Source: Candidatus Zhuqueibacterota bacterium
GTDB taxonomy: Bacteria > Zhuqueibacterota > Zhuqueibacteria > Thermofontimicrobiales > Thermofontimicrobiaceae
DNA: 64,000 nucleotides
Direction: 5' to 3'
Assembly (NCBI GenBank): GCA_049322915.1
Contig: JBMOPW010000026.1
Coordinates: 96,001 to 160,000, forward strand
Below the pieces are notes generated by a model. That model searched no databases. It was not told the DNA's origin and saw nothing but the letters and a program-made list of their open reading frames with translations. The position numbers and the translations under genes were made by a program. Of the stretch, positions 33,307 to 58,231 are shown piece by piece (position 1 is the stretch's first letter; the number at the start of each line of letters is the position of its first letter).

Positions 33307-36099
33307 CTACAGCGAATACTTCAAACCAGCATGCATCCACCAGGAATAAAACTCGCGTTGAATCGGCCGCGTTGTTTCGCCAATGTAGTAACGAAGCGGT
33401 TCATCGCTAAGATTGATCGCCTGGAAGTAGATTTGCAGGTTGGATGTGATATTCTGGGTGGCGGTAATATCGAACTGCAAATGGTTGTCATAATAGACAT
33501 CGTGGTCTTCGTCCTCACCGATTTCGGCGATGAATTTGCCGTGGTAGTTCAGACCAATACGACCGGTGAATCCAAATTTTTCGTAGCTGATGGCAAAATT
33601 CGCCACGTCGCCTGATTGTCCCGGCAGGGTCGTATCTTCCCGTTCGGGCAGGTCAGCGGTGGACTTGGTGTAGGTGTAATTGGCGTAAATACCAAAGCCA
33701 TTCCAGAATCCCGGCAAGAAGGTGAATTGCTGCTGCCAGTTGACTTCAAAGCCATACAGGGTCGCTTTATTTCCCTGAACCGGCTGGGTCACTTCGTAGC
33801 CGTCGTAAATTCCGCCGGCCTGTTCGAAGGAATGCTCATAGATTATTTTATCCAGCGATTTGTAGAAGGCTCCGCCGGAGATGATACCGATACCCTGAAA
33901 ATAATGTTCGCCCATCAAATCGACATTATAGGACGTGGTCGGTTCCAAATCCGGGTTGCCCAGGGTCATTTCTTCATCTTCGCGCAATACGAATTTGTAG
34001 GGGACCAGGTCGTAGTAATTGGGACGAGCGAGCGTCCGTGTGAACGCGGCTCGGATATTGGTGGCCGGCGTGAGCTGATAGCGCAGATGAAGCATCGGCA
34101 GCAGATGCTGCATCCATTTGTCCTGCTTCACTTCTGTGGTGCTTTCGTAATCGCCGTCCTCGTTGATTTGAACATCATTCCCGGTATAATCCAGTTTCAG
34201 CAGTTCATGGCGCAGCCCGGCCAGAATCATCAGCCTGTCCATGTTCACCGTGGTCATTCCGTAATAGGCGTAGAGATTTTCATTGGCTGTGTAGTTGGCG
34301 GCGTCGGTATCCTCGCGATTGACGTCACCCTCTAAGGCGCCATCCACATCTCTGTTGGCTTCGAAGAAGTCGCGCATTTTGTCCGGATCCAAACGATGGC
34401 CTAAATCATAATTACCCTCCAGGAAGTTGTCAGGAGAAGCGTCACCCTGGAATTGGCTCATCAGGATGTCATCGTCGCCTTCCCAGCCGTATTCCCACAC
34501 ATGATCGTCCTGCTTTTTGCTCTTCATGCGAAGTTTGGCGCCCACTTTCAGATCCGAAGTATAGCCGGACAGCAGATACGGATACTTGACATTGAAGGCG
34601 GCTGTGAAATCGTGGTCTGTGGTTTTGGTCTCTGAATAGGCGATGCCATCGAGTTTGTAATGCGAGGCATCCAATTCATAACCGCTGGCTAGGTTCGGCA
34701 CTGTGAATTTTGGCAGATCGGTATTGGATAGATTGAGAATCATATCCGCGTCTTCGTCCAGTTCAAAAGCGGACTCCAACAGGTCTGGCTTTTCTTCGTC
34801 CGCAAAGCTGTAGGACAGGGTATAGTCAAGGCTGAAGGCGTTAAAATCGTGTTTCCCGCCGCCGGCCACATTATAAAGCGATTGAATTTCCGTGCGGTCT
34901 TTTAACTCACGGTCGATAACCGCTTCGGAGATGTCGGTAGCGCTGGTGTATTCGCCTTTTTCCGGTCGAATTCTCAGGCGGTTCCTTCGTTCCAGATCGG
35001 TCCGTTTGTTGAACATACCGCGCAGGAACATCAGGTTGTTGTCGTTGAACTTGTAATCCAGGCTGGTAGTAATGCCATAGCGATCCCGTTTCACATCGTA
35101 GTCGCGCAATTCCATATTCTTCAACGCCCAGGGAATTTCAGTGCCAGCGGCGTCGTCCACGCTGCCCCATTCCATCTCGTTATTCTGGGAGCCGCGATTG
35201 CTTTGATAAAAACTGCCGCTGATGGTGAGGCCGATATTCTGGTTTTCACCAAACCGATTGGCATAGGTCAATCCGGCCTGGTACAGCGGTTTGCCCATTA
35301 AATCGCCGTATCCGCCGCCAGCGGTGAAATTGAAATAGCGGCCCTGATAATCGAACGCGCTCTTGGTGACAAGATTGACCGATCCGCCGATGGCGTCAGC
35401 GTCCATATCCGGGGTGAGGGCTTTTGTCACTTCAATGGAAGACAATTCTTCCGCAGAGATAATGTCCATGGGCACATGGCGTTCGCCGCCGTCCGGGGAG
35501 GGCAATCGCTCGCCATTGATCGTCATGGAATTGAGTCGGGCTTCGGTACCGCGTACTAAAACGTAGCGTCCTTCTCCCTGGTCGCGCTCGATGGAAACCG
35601 CCGGAATGCGCTGCAACACTTCTGCCGTGTTCAGATCCGGGAAGCGCAGCATTTGCTCTTCGGCAACCACGTTCTTGATAGTGGTGGACATTCGCTGCTG
35701 GCTCAATGCTTTCACCTGTCCCTGGCGCTCGCCCTGGACAACGATCGCTTCCATTTCAATGTAGCTTGCTTTCAATTCGATGTCGACCTTGACTGCGCCG
35801 CCATCGGTCACATTGACCTGAGTGGTGAATGGCTCGTAACCCATGTAGCTGCACACAAGTTCGTAGGCGCCTGGCTCAATGTGGTCAATGCGGAACGTTC
35901 CAACCCGGTCGCTGGCAGCGCCCAAATTCGTCCCTTTTAAAACGATGTTGGCGCCGGGCAGGTTGTCTTTGCTCTTGGAATCGACGACATGACCGGTAAT
36001 TTTTCCCTTGGTCTGGCTGAATCCGGCTACTGAAAATCCCATGAGTATCACGGAAATACAAAGCATAACCGTGAATGCTTTTTGAAAATTAGATCTCAT
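33307..36099 (-). CDS. TonB-dependent outer-membrane receptor
   Basis: Signal peptide, carboxypeptidase-reg-like domain, plug (AEVLQRIP..S..RDQGEGRYV.VRG; DADAIGGSVNL), barrel (GNPDLEP) ending AGLKYSL. Confidence 0.95.
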   Translation of the reverse strand: MRSNFQKAFTVMLCISVILMGFSVAGFSQTKGKITGHVVDSKSKDNLPGANIVLKGTNLGAASDRVGTFRIDHIEPGAYELVCSYMGYEPFTTQVNVTDGGAVKVDIELKASYIEMEAIVVQGERQGQVKALSQQRMSTTIKNVVAEEQMLRFPDLNTAEVLQRIPAVSIERDQGEGRYVLVRGTEARLNSMTINGERLPSPDGGERHVPMDIISAEELSSIEVTKALTPDMDADAIGGSVNLVTKSAFDYQGRYFNFTAGGGYGDLMGKPLYQAGLTYANRFGENQNIGLTISGSFYQSNRGSQNNEMEWGSVDDAAGTEIPWALKNMELRDYDVKRDRYGITTSLDYKFNDNNLMFLRGMFNKRTDLERRNRLRIRPEKGEYTSATDISEAVIDRELKDRTEIQSLYNVAGGGKHDFNAFSLDYTLSYSFADEEKPDLLESAFELDEDADMILNLSNTDLPKFTVPNLASGYELDASHYKLDGIAYSETKTTDHDFTAAFNVKYPYLLSGYTSDLKVGAKLRMKSKKQDDHVWEYGWEGDDDILMSQFQGDASPDNFLEGNYDLGHRLDPDKMRDFFEANRDVDGALEGDVNREDTDAANYTANENLYAYYGMTTVNMDRLMILAGLRHELLKLDYTGNDVQINEDGDYESTTEVKQDKWMQHLLPMLHLRYQLTPATNIRAAFTRTLARPNYYDLVPYKFVLREDEEMTLGNPDLEPTTSYNVDLMGEHYFQGIGIISGGAFYKSLDKIIYEHSFEQAGGIYDGYEVTQPVQGNKATLYGFEVNWQQQFTFLPGFWNGFGIYANYTYTKSTADLPEREDTTLPGQSGDVANFAISYEKFGFTGRIGLNYHGKFIAEIGEDEDHDVYYDNHLQFDITATQNITSNLQIYFQAINLSDEPLRYYIGETTRPIQREFYSWWMHAGLKYSL

Positions 36100-36724
36100 T
36101 TTTTTCTCCCTTGTTCGGTTAATTGTTTCATTTGCTCATGTGGTCTGATAGCAAACGTGATTGAAATGACTGCTGGCGAATCACCTCCTTTTCCATTTTT
36201 TAAATTAAGGTGTTCTGTGGAGAACCCGGGAATAACGGATGTGAAATCAATGCTCATAACAACGAGACTGTCTCGTGCGCTGTGTATTTCCCACCGTTCG
36301 CATCATCCCGGTAGATTTCTTCCTTCACCTTCTCGCCTTCTACATAGATTTTGAAAAAGCTGCTTTTCCGATACCCGCAATTTTCCCGGAAGGTCTGGCA
36401 GAGTCGCAATTTGTCCGTGATATAATAGCGCATATCCGCTGTGACAATGAACGAGCGCGTATTGGCTTGTTGGGCAAACGATGCTGAACCGATGATGAGC
36501 AAGGCCGGAATAACTAATGCTAACTTACAAATCCAAAATGAACGCTACGTTACATTTTTAGTCACTACCCAGGTTGGCTGGTTCAGGGTTCCGGGTTCAA
36601 GGTTAGAATCATTTCGTTTGTATATTTTGTAAATGAATATTCGTCACTATTCCGCCACCAAGGCTCAAAGGCACGAAGAAAAAGATACATCTGACCTGAA
36701 TTATTCATGAACTTGCTTAGAATT

Positions 36725-37306
36725 GTAACCGATCACAGGGGATAAAAAGTTGTATCTGTCTTTTGTGGACAGGATAACATGATGATAATGATTTACAGGA
36801 TTATTTTATCCGGTAATATCCTCACCTTTCTTTTTACTTCTACCTTATGGGGAGAAAAATTCAGCAATAAGCCTACTGGTTTGATAGTAGCTGTTAGATA
36901 ATTCACCAACTGAACTTCAAACTCCTTTACTATTTTTTCTACAGATTTCAATTCAATGATAATTAACTCGTCGACAATGATATCCGCTTTAAAATTGCCC
37001 ACAACTACTCCTTCATAATAGACCTTGATGGGTTTTTGTCTTTCGACGACAAATCCCATTTTTTTTAATTCAATGGTCAGGGCATTTTCATAAACAGACT
37101 CCAAAAAGCCAAATCCTAAAATGTTATATACTTTTTAAGCACAGCCAATAATTTTTTCAGTCAAGCTTGCCAGTTCCATTACGCTACCTCCTGTGATTTA
37201 CATGATTATGGTTTGATTAACATGATAAAGATCTAAAGTGGATTGATCCTGTCCATCCCAAATATCCTGTTATCCTGTCTATATTAACCACTCTGTGATC
37301 GGTTGC
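36725..37306. mobile_element. Nested stack, layer 4, carrying GxxExxY
   Basis: Ends GTAACCGATCACAG / CTGTGATCGGTTGC; 8-bp duplication TTAGAATT (36717-36724) / TCAGAATT (37307-37314); intact MITEs have a single TCAGAATT. Confidence 0.85.
36793..37179 (-). pseudogene. GxxExxY protein (PD-(D/E)xK-like) with premature stop
   Basis: GGAGG RBS, MELASLTEKIIGCA*KVYNILGFGFLESVYENAL...ADIIVDELIIIELKS...QLVNYL...GLLLNF; TAA at 37135-37137 (codon 15). Confidence 0.9.
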
Positions 37307-37717
37307 TCAGAATTTGAGTCAACATTCAGATTTTCAACTAGCTAAAAATAAGCCATTTTGAAACTCAGTTTTTGTACGTTTATTTTAAAAGGAGCACCAT
37401 TCAGGTTAGCCAGCCTCCTTCAAAAATACTATGAAAAATGCAGGCTAAATTATCGATTCTGAAAAGCTGAACTTGGTTTAAAAAAAATTGAATCTCACAA
37501 AATAAGAATGAATAAAATGACATCTTCGTGTAACGTTGTGGCTTCGTGATTTCGTGGCATGACTACATGCCTGAATAGCGACGAAAATGCTTTTTAACCC
37601 GGAACCGGGAACCTTTAAACCTGGAACCTGAGCAGATACCATTTTTATAACTTCTCATTATGTCCTTCAATGATGTGTACGCCAGTTCTTTTCGAATTGG
37701 CGACTTTGATGAATGAA

Positions 37718-38719
37718 TTACATTTTCAACACGGATTCTAAAACGATTTTTTGAACGGCTGGCGTTCCGGCGCTGTTGATTTCCTCAATCAGCACGTCTA
37801 CGGCCCGTTGGCCCATTTCTTCACAGGGCTGGTGCATGCTGGCAAATGAAGCCGATGAAAACGGATTCACCTGCCCGGCGCCGATGAAAATGAGATCCAT
37901 GTCCTCCGGAATGCGGACGCCGGTTTCCAGCGCCGCTTTATAAGCGCCCAGCGCCACAGAGAAAGTGACCGCGAAAATGACGGACGGCCAGGGCTTATCC
38001 CGAATGATTTTCTTGAATCCCTGATAGCCGTATTCCTCGCTGAATCCCCCTTCAATGACCCACTGCGGAAAGACAGGGAGATTGTGACGGTCCAACGCAT
38101 CGCGAAAGCCATTGTACCGCTCGCGCCCGATGTTGACGTGCGGGTAGCCAGCCAGGTGGGCGATCTTTGTATGACCTAACTGAATAGCGTATTCCACGGC
38201 GCGAAAAGCGCTTTGCCTGTCATCGACCCGCACCGTGCTGAAACCGATTTCTTCAATCACGCGATCGAAAAAGACCAGCGGTGTGCCGGTTTTTTTGATG
38301 GATTCAAAAATGGTCGTATCTGTCGTCTGCTCAGAAATTGAAATGAGCAATCCGTCCACGCGCATGGATAAAAGCGTCTGGAGTTGGTGAATTTCCCGCT
38401 CCGCGTTCTCGTAGGAAATCATCAGCAGTGTTTCATAACCCTGGTTAAAAGCTGCGTCATGGATGGTTTTAATGATGGCTGGGAAAAAATACTGACCGAT
38501 CTTCGGAACGACCAGCCCGATGATCTGGGACTTTTTTGAAGACAAATTCCGGGCGATGATGTTCGGTGTATATCCCAATGTGTGGGCCAGGTCTTTGACG
38601 CGCTGTTTGGTTTCGTGAGAAATGTCCGGGTGATCTCTCAGTGCTTTGGATACTGTCACCGTGGAGACACGTAAAATTTTTGCTAAATCGCTCAGTGTGA
38701 TTTGAGGCGGTTTTTGCAT
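37718..38719 (-). CDS. LacI-family transcriptional regulator
   Basis: TLSDLAKILRVSTVTVSKAL HTH, YTPNIIARNL hinge, sugar-binding domain (VDGLLI, FFDR). Confidence 0.95.
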   Translation of the reverse strand: MQKPPQITLSDLAKILRVSTVTVSKALRDHPDISHETKQRVKDLAHTLGYTPNIIARNLSSKKSQIIGLVVPKIGQYFFPAIIKTIHDAAFNQGYETLLMISYENAEREIHQLQTLLSMRVDGLLISISEQTTDTTIFESIKKTGTPLVFFDRVIEEIGFSTVRVDDRQSAFRAVEYAIQLGHTKIAHLAGYPHVNIGRERYNGFRDALDRHNLPVFPQWVIEGGFSEEYGYQGFKKIIRDKPWPSVIFAVTFSVALGAYKAALETGVRIPEDMDLIFIGAGQVNPFSSASFASMHQPCEEMGQRAVDVLIEEINSAGTPAVQKIVLESVLKM

Positions 38720-57847: not shown

Positions 57848-58231
57848 GCAGCGCTTCCCAGAAAAAAGCATAGAACGCTGATGAAGCGGATGACGCAGAT
57901 GAACGCAGATAAAAGACTTTTGGTGTCCATTGAGACCAGGTCATTGTTGTTTTTTGAATCAAAAAAAATCCGCGCGAATCCGTGTAATCCGTGTTTTATA
58001 AAAAACTGAGCGAGTGGGACTTCAAAAAAAGCATAGAACGCGGATGACGCAGATGAACGCGGATAAAAGACTTTTGGTGACCATTGACGCCTGGTCATTC
58101 TTGTTTTTTGAATCAAAAATAATCCGCGCGAATCCGTGTCATCCGTGTTCTATAAAAAACTGAGCGAGCAGCGCTTCCCAGAAAAAAGCATAGAACGCTG
58201 ATGACGCGGATGACGCAGATGAACACAGATA
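57848..58231. repeat. Tandem array (~2.4 units of ~160 bp) of long-hairpin units with ~9-nt-periodic arms
   Basis: GCATAGAACG at 57868, 58031 and 58188; full units contain TAGAACGC(G/T)GATGACGCAGAT... and ...ATCCGCGCGAATCCGTGTCATCCGTGTTCTA. Confidence 0.9.

Follow-up and report, generated by a model that had tools for sequence, protein, structure and literature searches.

A deep nest of non-autonomous transposons around a GxxExxY gene module in a Zhuqueibacterota genome

A layered block of inverted repeats, about 1.1 kb long, lies between a TonB-dependent receptor gene and a LacI-type regulator gene of Candidatus Zhuqueibacterota bacterium (GenBank assembly GCA_049322915.1, contig JBMOPW010000026.1, positions 96,001 to 160,000), and it raises the question of how such a structure was put together. 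We refer to this whole stretch of 64,000 nucleotides as the window and number positions from its first letter. An original prediction, made from the letters alone, had read the block as four to five unrelated miniature mobile elements, built up at this place by elements that repeatedly target one another. Our analysis bears out a nest of non-autonomous mobile elements with no transposase inside it: four transposon layers, L1 to L4 from the outside in, surround a fifth layer, a GxxExxY gene with inverted arms. We consider it likely that the nest combines non-autonomous DNA transposons of two superfamilies and that its IS66-type layers would have been moved by a cut-and-paste DDE transposase supplied in trans.

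The nest occupies positions 36553–37647, where it fills a gene-free spacer of ~1.1 kb (block size 1,087 bp) and is the sole repetitive stretch, with single-copy DNA on either side. The genome was assembled from a metagenome into 45 contigs (6.25 Mb); it is 96% complete and has 51% AT. A BLAST comparison of positions 36300–37900 with this genome gave 318 matches; the depth was 1 up to ~36553 and from ~37648 onward, and inside the nest it was ~22–47 over the L1/L2 arms, ~90–104 over L3 and 6–18 over L4. The match edges stack exactly at the layer junctions, with, for example, 87 matches ending at 36724 and 89 beginning at 37303. Concentric inverted pairs were recovered by a repeat finder for L1, L4 and the inner arms, and Rfam gave no match at E 1 or better in 36300–37900. 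The layered repeat signal is far above chance, and each layer belongs to a family of many copies that has inverted ends and a target duplication of its own, as listed here:

36553–36560, no strand: left 8-bp target duplication of L1, CATTTTTA, identical (8/8) to 37640–37647
36561–37639: L1, whole element, with paired ends and the 8/8 duplication
36561–36642, plus strand: L1 left arm, end GTCACTACCCAGG (family consensus GTAAC(T/G)ACTCAGGTTGG); it closes with the left duplication of L2 (GAATATTC, 8 bp)
36643–37582: L2, whole element, with flanks GAATATTC / GAAAATGC, 6/8 identical
36643–36694, plus strand: L2 left arm with the end GTCACTATTCCGCC, or GTAACTGCTCAGCC in other copies; it closes with the decayed left duplication of L3 (CTGA, 4 bp)
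36695–37444: L3, whole element, with flanks CTGA / CTAA (3/4)
36695–36724, plus strand: L3 left part with the end CCTGAATTATTCATGAA; it closes with the left duplication of L4 (TTAGAATT, 8 bp)
36725–37306, plus strand: L4, a 582-bp cassette with 16-bp IS66-type ends and no transposase, carrying the GxxExxY module
36766–36801, plus strand: left inverted arm of the module, GGACAGGATAAC ... ACAGGAT units
36793–37179, minus strand: GxxExxY / PDDEXK_3 pseudogene, with TAA for Tyr codon 15 (37135–37137) and a 2-bp deletion near the 3' end
37246–37279, plus strand: right inverted arm of the module, ATCCTGTCC ATCCCAAAT ATCCTGTT ATCCTGTC
37307–37444, plus strand: L3 right part, which opens with the right duplication of L4 (TCAGAATT, 8 bp) and ends ...ATGCAGG
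37445–37582, plus strand: L2 right arm, which opens with the right duplication of L3 (CTAA, 4 bp) and ends GAATAGCGAC
37583–37639, plus strand: L1 right arm, which opens with the right duplication of L2 (GAAAATGC, 8 bp) and ends CTGAGCAGATAC
37640–37647, no strand: right 8-bp target duplication of L1, CATTTTTA, identical to the left copy

The coordinates proposed for all four elements stood, as did the perfect duplication of L1 and the flanks of L2, and some details of the inner layers had to be revised. L3 had been described as a 161-bp miniature inverted-repeat transposable element (MITE) flanked by CTAA; its left flank is CTGA, and it measures 160 bp here after removal of L4 and one duplication copy, the family size being 161 bp. 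The ends of L4, GTAACCGATCACAGGG and CTCTGTGATCGGTTGC, are 16 bp long and not 14, and its flanks agree at 7 of 8 positions. The innermost layer had been given as periodic arms around GxxExxY. The arms are real, but they belong to a widely conserved gene-plus-arms module, and the frame at this locus is a pseudogene.

In what order were the layers joined? The inside-out order that had been proposed is sound, because empty-site copies exist for every step. Eight gene-less solo copies of L1 (~126–132 bp) join 36642 straight to 37583/37591 and show the empty L2 site as ...AATGAATATTCTTTTAACCC..., and in 36 copies of L2 the L3 site is empty. Of the other L3 copies, 85 extend across the L4 site, and every one is uninterrupted there, reading GCTCAGAATTTGAG; the three intact copies in the window (4851, 42902 and 52639), previously taken as the empty site for L4, belong to this set. 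L4 thus splits L3, L3 splits L2 and L2 splits L1. A genome-wide search with the termini, as had been suggested, found every layer in many copies together with partial stages. When 354 BLAST matches were grouped into 211 loci, the layers occurred in the following patterns:

L3 alone: 45 loci
L1 alone, left arm joined to right arm: 8 loci
L2 alone: 6 loci
L1(L2) without L3: at least 5 loci
L1(L2(L3)): 4–6 loci
All layers together: 1 locus, the present one

The ends tell which layers are kin. L1 and L2 ends read GTAAC(T/G)(A/G)CTCAG, and solo L2 copies are about 186–190 bp long. Of 30 pairs of flanking 8-mers from L1/L2-type elements, 12 agreed at 7/8 positions or more, while an offset control gave 0 of 30; the duplications are rich in A and T, which account for 80 of their 96 bases. 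The IS66 inverted repeat is described as beginning with GTAAGCG and yielding 8-bp repeats (PMC11946415), and an account of ISDge4 of Deinococcus geothermalis, from the ISBst12 group of this family, gives ends of GTGACTACTCAGCA / GTAACTGCTCAGCA and an 8-bp direct repeat (PMC12898284); the L2-copy end GTAACTGCTCAGCC equals GTAACTGCTCAGCA at 13 of 14 positions. Because L1, L2 and L4 all share GTAA-N4-TCA ends, they appear to form one superfamily derived from IS66-family (ISBst12-like) insertion sequences. This likeness, together with the common 8-bp duplication, contradicts the view that the elements are unrelated. Where elements with L4-type ends are full-length, they encode one DDE_Tnp_IS66 protein of ~460–520 aa, whereas L1, L2 and L4 have no transposase, L4 carries a foreign gene module, and composites use the ends of two families as one element.

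L3 is of another kind. The genome holds 91 paired copies, 86 of them 160–162 bp long and with ~60 unique flanks, which together cover 18,011 bp, or 0.29% of the genome and 2.2% of the DNA outside long reading frames. Among 63 solo copies, 49 have an exact 4-bp duplication, and the target is t-YTAA-a in fixed orientation. Since IS5-family target and duplication are given as YTAR, 4 bp (PMC5009759), a duplication of the type seen here, L3 resembles IS5-family elements and their small derivatives, the likeness being one of target and duplication. A search of 21 genomes of the order found the L3 end in 19 of them, against 0–1 for reversed-pattern controls. All three of L1, L2 and L3 are short, with terminal inverted repeats and no long reading frame, and with inverted ends, duplications of fixed length and many dispersed copies they have the properties of bacterial MITEs.

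Was the nest assembled at this locus, layer upon layer? Copies elsewhere in the genome argue for composites that travel. All 12 composites that have an L2 right end share one decayed duplication, GAATATTC / GAAAAT.., and L2 therefore entered L1 once. L1(L2) and L1(L2(L3)) occur at separate loci with 8-bp flanks of their own (TTTTCTTT, AAATTCC(T/A), GATTTT(T/C)C, TTTTTATT and GTTTCTC(G/A)). A hybrid element with the left end of L2 and the right end of L1, which holds L3 and measures ~390–409 bp, likewise has flanks of its own (CTTTTTTT, GATTTTTT); 10 end pairs of that size were found, and the cluster count gives 8–11 loci. As composites elsewhere carry fresh duplications, the nests move as units.

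On a larger scale, four hybrid copies holding L3 share both outer flanks, including a hairpin of periodic arms (contig C26, 42000–42570; C20, 87950–88521; C14, 647667–648220; C19, 58367–58915), and a still larger nest was therefore copied as a unit.

The alternative is the one first proposed, in which mutual targeting brought four or five unrelated miniature elements in succession to the present locus. It draws on the layer order and empty sites, which hold, and on two landing preferences, which are real. Among 19 distinct L4-family copies, 5 lie in or against L3-family elements, at five different positions (binomial P 4e-5 against 2.2% of the DNA outside open reading frames, ORFs); the rate at which L4 lands in L3 is thus more than tenfold that expected from the share of L3 in non-ORF DNA. 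L3 in turn sits at the single L2 site (tCTAAa) in 20 copies. In the L2 tree, 16 of 19 L3-bearing copies fall into one well-supported clade together with 7 empty copies and three lie elsewhere, and the starred branches force at least four changes of L3 occupancy. The L3 inserts are alike at 94.7%, and are thus less diverged than their L2 hosts (87.3% and 77.5%). This pattern fits repeated hits on one site combined with the spread of composites, to which gene conversion or precise loss could contribute. A tree of L3, meant to show whether the copies within L2 are a single clade, has 67 of 82 forks open, and its host labels, with 17 changes against 17.2 when shuffled, decide nothing alone.

The idea of mutual targeting thus holds for L4 into L3 and for L3 into the L2 site, but it does not extend to L1, whose flanks are repetitive in 4 of 28 and 8 of 39 cases against 223 of 1500 random non-ORF 60-mers, so that its nesting is not above background. 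Nor are the contexts holding L3: two are clear repeats (the L2 site, 20 copies, and repeat X, 7) and two are possibly L2-like among ~65. Together with the shared end type and duplication length of L1, L2 and L4, the single entry of L2 into L1 and the separate duplications of composites elsewhere, this makes construction in place unlikely, and the creation of the ~1.1 kb here by repeated hits doubtful. The stack was probably not built where it now stands, with one or two local events at the fewest and four at the most.

An assembler that threads repeat families into a chimeric path could also produce a structure of this kind. The genome, put together from a metagenome in 45 contigs, is broken at L4 copies, and the contigs listed from another assembler (run X1) bridge none of the right-hand inner junctions (L4/L3, L3/L2, L2/L1). 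Those contigs do, however, run across four junctions, the left-hand ones of flank/L1, L1/L2 and L3/L4 and the right-hand one of L1/flank, at a depth of 68–75, like that of the flanks; run X1 is probably the source sample, and the support is not fully independent. The left L2/L3 junction was not bridged by the contigs listed, with 29 letters against a 31-letter rule, and the middle of L4 (36840–37055) had no cover in either run. At every junction the duplication expected of the inserted family is present, and the layers carry private differences: L4 at the locus is 91% identical to its sisters and has a private nonsense codon and a private 2-bp deletion. An assembly artefact is thus extremely improbable.

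We return to a nest of transposons that spread as units, for which a series of steps may be proposed. L1 (~130 bp alone), L2 (~190 bp alone) and L4 (582 bp) would be IS66-derived elements that duplicate 8 bp of AT-rich target, L4 being a mobile insertion cassette (MIC) with an IS66-type shell and, as passenger, the gene of a GxxExxY PD-(D/E)XK nuclease with its 9-bp-periodic arms. The transposase would need merely compatible outermost ends, in which case a small element that has been invaded stays mobile and carries its lodger. The copies show that L2 entered L1 once, after which L1(L2) spread; that L3 came to lie at L2's only tCTAAa site on more than one occasion; that the hybrid with the L2 left end and the L1 right end arose and spread; and that L4 landed in L3. 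A pre-formed L1(L2(L3)), possibly already holding L4, would have jumped into CATTTTTA between the lacI-type and TonB-receptor genes. L4 would have arrived afterwards if it was not already inside, and here it would since have decayed.

Candidate enzymes are found outside this genome. A scan of metagenome contigs for the L4 end gave at least 117 stretches, of which 80 were fetched and many were chance 17-mers. It yielded 21 end pairs; five span 1.56–2.44 kb and have frames of 462–502 aa, and all four frames tested between L4-type ends match PF03050 (DDE_Tnp_IS66) at E 1e-30 to 1e-34 (loci L212, L205, L189 and L158). Small L4-end pairs of 138–300 bp in metagenomes have exact 8-bp duplications (loci L161, L211 and L216). 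An L4-like copy in a related genus has perfect ends with AAAACATC on both sides, and an IS66-type element in that genus has the ends GTAAAACCTCAC. IS66-family transposases are present in 5 of 20 other genomes of the order. Transposases with matching ends, which had been suggested as a check, thus turned up in metagenomes but not in the genome itself. The 2.4-kb IS66-type elements also hold a second gene, matching DruA (PF14236, E down to 7e-46; L051, 1715–2593; L212, 1451–2329; L158, 1188–2096), and the DruA-like genes of L212 and L158 have a weak match to the Mom family as well.

Several results weigh against the reading that we favour. The 96%-complete genome has no IS66-family transposase, as PF03050 and the transposase of a relative each gave 0 matches, and among end pairs up to 6 kb in this genome no family-end pair longer than 1.1 kb encloses a transposase. 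Any trans-mobilisation today is hypothetical, and the source of the transposase may be unassembled, lost or external. For L3, a search was made of 21 genomes of the order and 30 loci were fetched; these held no parent, only pairs of 123–298 bp. No second copy holds L4 at the same L3 site (0/85), which leaves room for building in place. The perfect outer duplication (L1, 8/8) and the decayed inner ones (L2 6/8, L3 3/4, L4 7/8) fit the late arrival of an old nest, but at such lengths they hint at it only weakly. To these points the unbridged right-hand inner junctions are to be added.

Other searches for a partner concerned individual families and contigs. No L1/L2 ends flanking an IS66 transposase were found in the genome itself, outside of which these ends were not searched. 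Likewise, no L3-type ends surround an IS5-family transposase in this genome, and the patterns gave 0 matches on loci L003 and L009. The only large L4 end pair (C45, 5,578 bp) was a chance match with four mismatches around ordinary genes. The small contigs C22–C25 and C9 were rejected as partners, holding pieces of ISAzo13-type, DDE_5, Mu-type, IS91-type and DDE_Tnp_1 transposases; C9, C22–C25 and C31 had no BLAST match to the nest or L4, C31 was without a family match, and the ends of C24 gave no matching terminal inverted repeat. Contig C8 holds an aldehyde ferredoxin oxidoreductase gene, plus an L1(L2) copy and an L4 end.

What, then, is L4, the layer that carries a gene? Its family has ends reading GTAAYYGATCACAGGG, with 18 left and 18 right termini in the genome, most of them ~125 bases from contig ends because the L4 repeat breaks the assembly. 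For 15 of the 18 left ends, the 8-bp flank identifies a partner among the right ends (11 exactly, 4 with one mismatch), and 10 of the flank-paired copies (9 L4 and 1 short form) have their halves on different contigs. The short L4-like form is represented by three 266-bp copies with ends and arms and no gene. Matching 8-bp duplications join ten contig-end pairs (C15/C14, C27/C16, C27/C43, C29/C34, C18/C20, C18/C8, C40/C37, C1/C7, C1/C38 and C42/C33), so that these L4-family duplications can be used for scaffolding, with 10 collapsed copies linking contig ends.

With ends of the insertion-sequence type, a target duplication, a passenger gene, no transposase and many copies, L4 has the make-up of the elements named mobile insertion cassettes (PMC3129680). 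It differs from them in its passenger, a discrete and apparently selfish module and not a housekeeping or resistance gene, and in that gene-dead copies still spread. MIC231 of Bacillus cereus is an example of a mobile insertion cassette.

The passenger gene is best judged from sister copies of L4. These have an intact 126-aa GxxExxY frame that matches TIGR04256 (E 9e-41, 138.8 bits, cut-off 35) and PF13366 (E 2e-39, 134.8 bits, cut-off 22); the copy at the present locus scores 131.8 bits with one TAA inside. In the alignment D66, E76 and K78 are invariant, and at least three L4 copies keep the intact frame with the D...ExK residues. The protein matched solely PDDEXK_3 at E 0.01 or better, with no Y1/HUH match of the REP/RAYT type, and a PDB sequence search with the nuclease gave no match. 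A survey of the PD-(D/E)XK fold gives PDDEXK_3 as of unknown function.

Arms frame this gene well beyond the present genome. At the locus itself, the pair 36768–36801 / 37246–37279 (34 nt) is 76% complementary according to the repeat finder. In a set of 80 relatives of the GxxExxY protein from many bacterial and some archaeal phyla, the best inverted repeat across the gene flanks had a mean score of 17.6 against 7.8 for shuffled sequence (70 loci). Forward words occur at 8.3/kb upstream of the gene and 0.9/kb further out, and reverse words at 7.7/kb downstream and 1.1/kb further out. The words are 7–8 nt long, and their spacing is 9 bp in 44 of 63 cases. At least two forward words upstream together with at least two reverse words downstream, a strict rule, were present at 38 of 68 loci. 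Arm sequences vary between loci and agree within a locus. Gene and arms also stand alone, without L4 ends, in another family of the order, and gene-less arm pairs of the ACGCGGAT type are dispersed in the genome, whereas a genome search confined ACAGGAT-type arms to L4-family copies and one cluster on contig C13. Because the arms frame the gene across phyla, stand alone with it and disperse as gene-less pairs, the cargo is a discrete gene-plus-arms module, conserved across phyla, that was picked up by an IS66-type shell. Our search of the published literature found no description of such a module.

Other arm units were seen in this genome. Gene-less hairpin units with 9-bp-periodic ACGCGGAT / ACACGGAT words lie at 58038 and 58195 of the window (C26, 154038 and 154195) and at ~40 other places. 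They match the arms around a second GxxExxY gene (C34, 451790), and one form of ~147 bp gave 76 BLAST matches. At C13, 110559–111000 (loci L021 and L028), about five tandem hairpin units with a period of ~102 bp and ACATGGAT-GAACAGGAT-GCACAGGAT words adjoin another GxxExxY gene.

Does the nuclease contribute to the spread of its carrier? L4 might not be passive if the GxxExxY nuclease aided the spread of L4, or of L1/L2, for example by cutting structured DNA at landing sites. The intact frames with D...ExK residues, the discreteness of the module across phyla, the enrichment of L4-family copies in L3 elements and the lack of a cognate transposase in the assembly would all agree with this. But six L4 copies share a 100%-identical frame-breaking insert, so that the youngest copies have spread gene-dead and the gene is dispensable in cis. 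Elements with the same ends carry ordinary IS66 transposases, and we know of no lone PD-(D/E)XK nuclease that performs strand transfer. No target duplication was seen in 45 stand-alone module loci inspected by eye, and none of the 80 modules from other phyla had an L4-type end. An active role of the nuclease in transposition is thus very unlikely, and L4 is better understood as a passive cassette. The insert concerned is 65 bp long, has palindromic ends (CCCCGTGTAAT...ATTACACGGGG) and occurs at C7, 98996–99060 (locus L017) and in five L4 copies at contig ends, and nowhere else in the genome.

The landing preferences allow a bolder proposal. To land inside other small elements might be an evolved safe-haven strategy here: the IS66-type machinery that moves L4, possibly helped by the GxxExxY nuclease, would recognise L3 DNA through its structure or a bound protein and not through its sequence, and re-mobilisation of whole nests with mixed ends would keep making new composites. 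We hold this to be a doubtful idea at present; if it were true, the genome would be a natural experiment in how small bacterial transposons build larger ones.

Nesting is known as such. Jiang and Wessler reportedly described nested miniature elements in plants (maize, rice) in 2001, and the likeness lies in elements within elements, with uninterrupted sisters that give the order and the duplication. The present nest is bacterial and deeper, with four transposon layers plus a cargo module, and it comes with direct evidence for the re-mobilisation of whole nests and for a hybrid-ended element. REP/REPIN sequences with their RAYT resemble the innermost module in layout only (a small enzyme gene, hairpin-forming inverted arms and dispersed gene-less pairs); the module enzyme has a PD-(D/E)XK fold and not a Y1/HUH one, its arms consist of 9-bp-periodic words of 7–8 nt, and it rides in an IS66-type shell. 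No account of such bacterial nests was found in the published literature that we searched. The deep nest is real and unusually deep, formed by known kinds of elements that belong to new families. Its most unusual piece is the cargo module, and the new aspect is a transposon shell that multiplies the module.

Nested insertions are a natural record of transposon behaviour, and in this genome nearly every intermediate is kept (solo, two-layer, three-layer and hybrid), so that the build-up can be read. An invaded small non-autonomous element stays mobile, and ends from two different families work together as one element. For the GxxExxY module, with ~15 copies inside the IS66-type shell, the nest gives a concrete vehicle, which bears on how a widespread gene moves.

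Further variation was observed within the L1 and L2 families. Position ~37511 in the L2 right arm is a second insertion hot spot, as at least 8 other L2 copies hold blocks of ~200–560 bp exactly there (for example C26, 227385–227740; C16, 25312–25668; C34, 370819–371383). Some L1 copies (C14, 1067693–1067842; C21, 23333–23521) have expanded runs of subterminal CCTGAACC-like words, and the length of the L1 right arm therefore varies by repeat gain.

The genes that flank the nest are the following:

33307–36099, minus strand: TonB-dependent receptor gene
37718–38719, minus strand: LacI-type regulator gene

A comparison with the orthologous locus in relatives had also been suggested. In a relative from another family of the order, the orthologous receptor-regulator pair is separated by a spacer of 333 bp that has no nest. 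The flanking genes gave no match in a same-genus relative, which thus offers no close empty site, and the sole orthologous spacer is that of the distant relative. To the left of the nest lies a frame of 82 aa (36254–36502, minus strand), whose start is 50 bp from the nest. In translation it matches (59% over 51 aa) the corresponding place in the orthologous spacer of relative G010, and it may be a real small gene.

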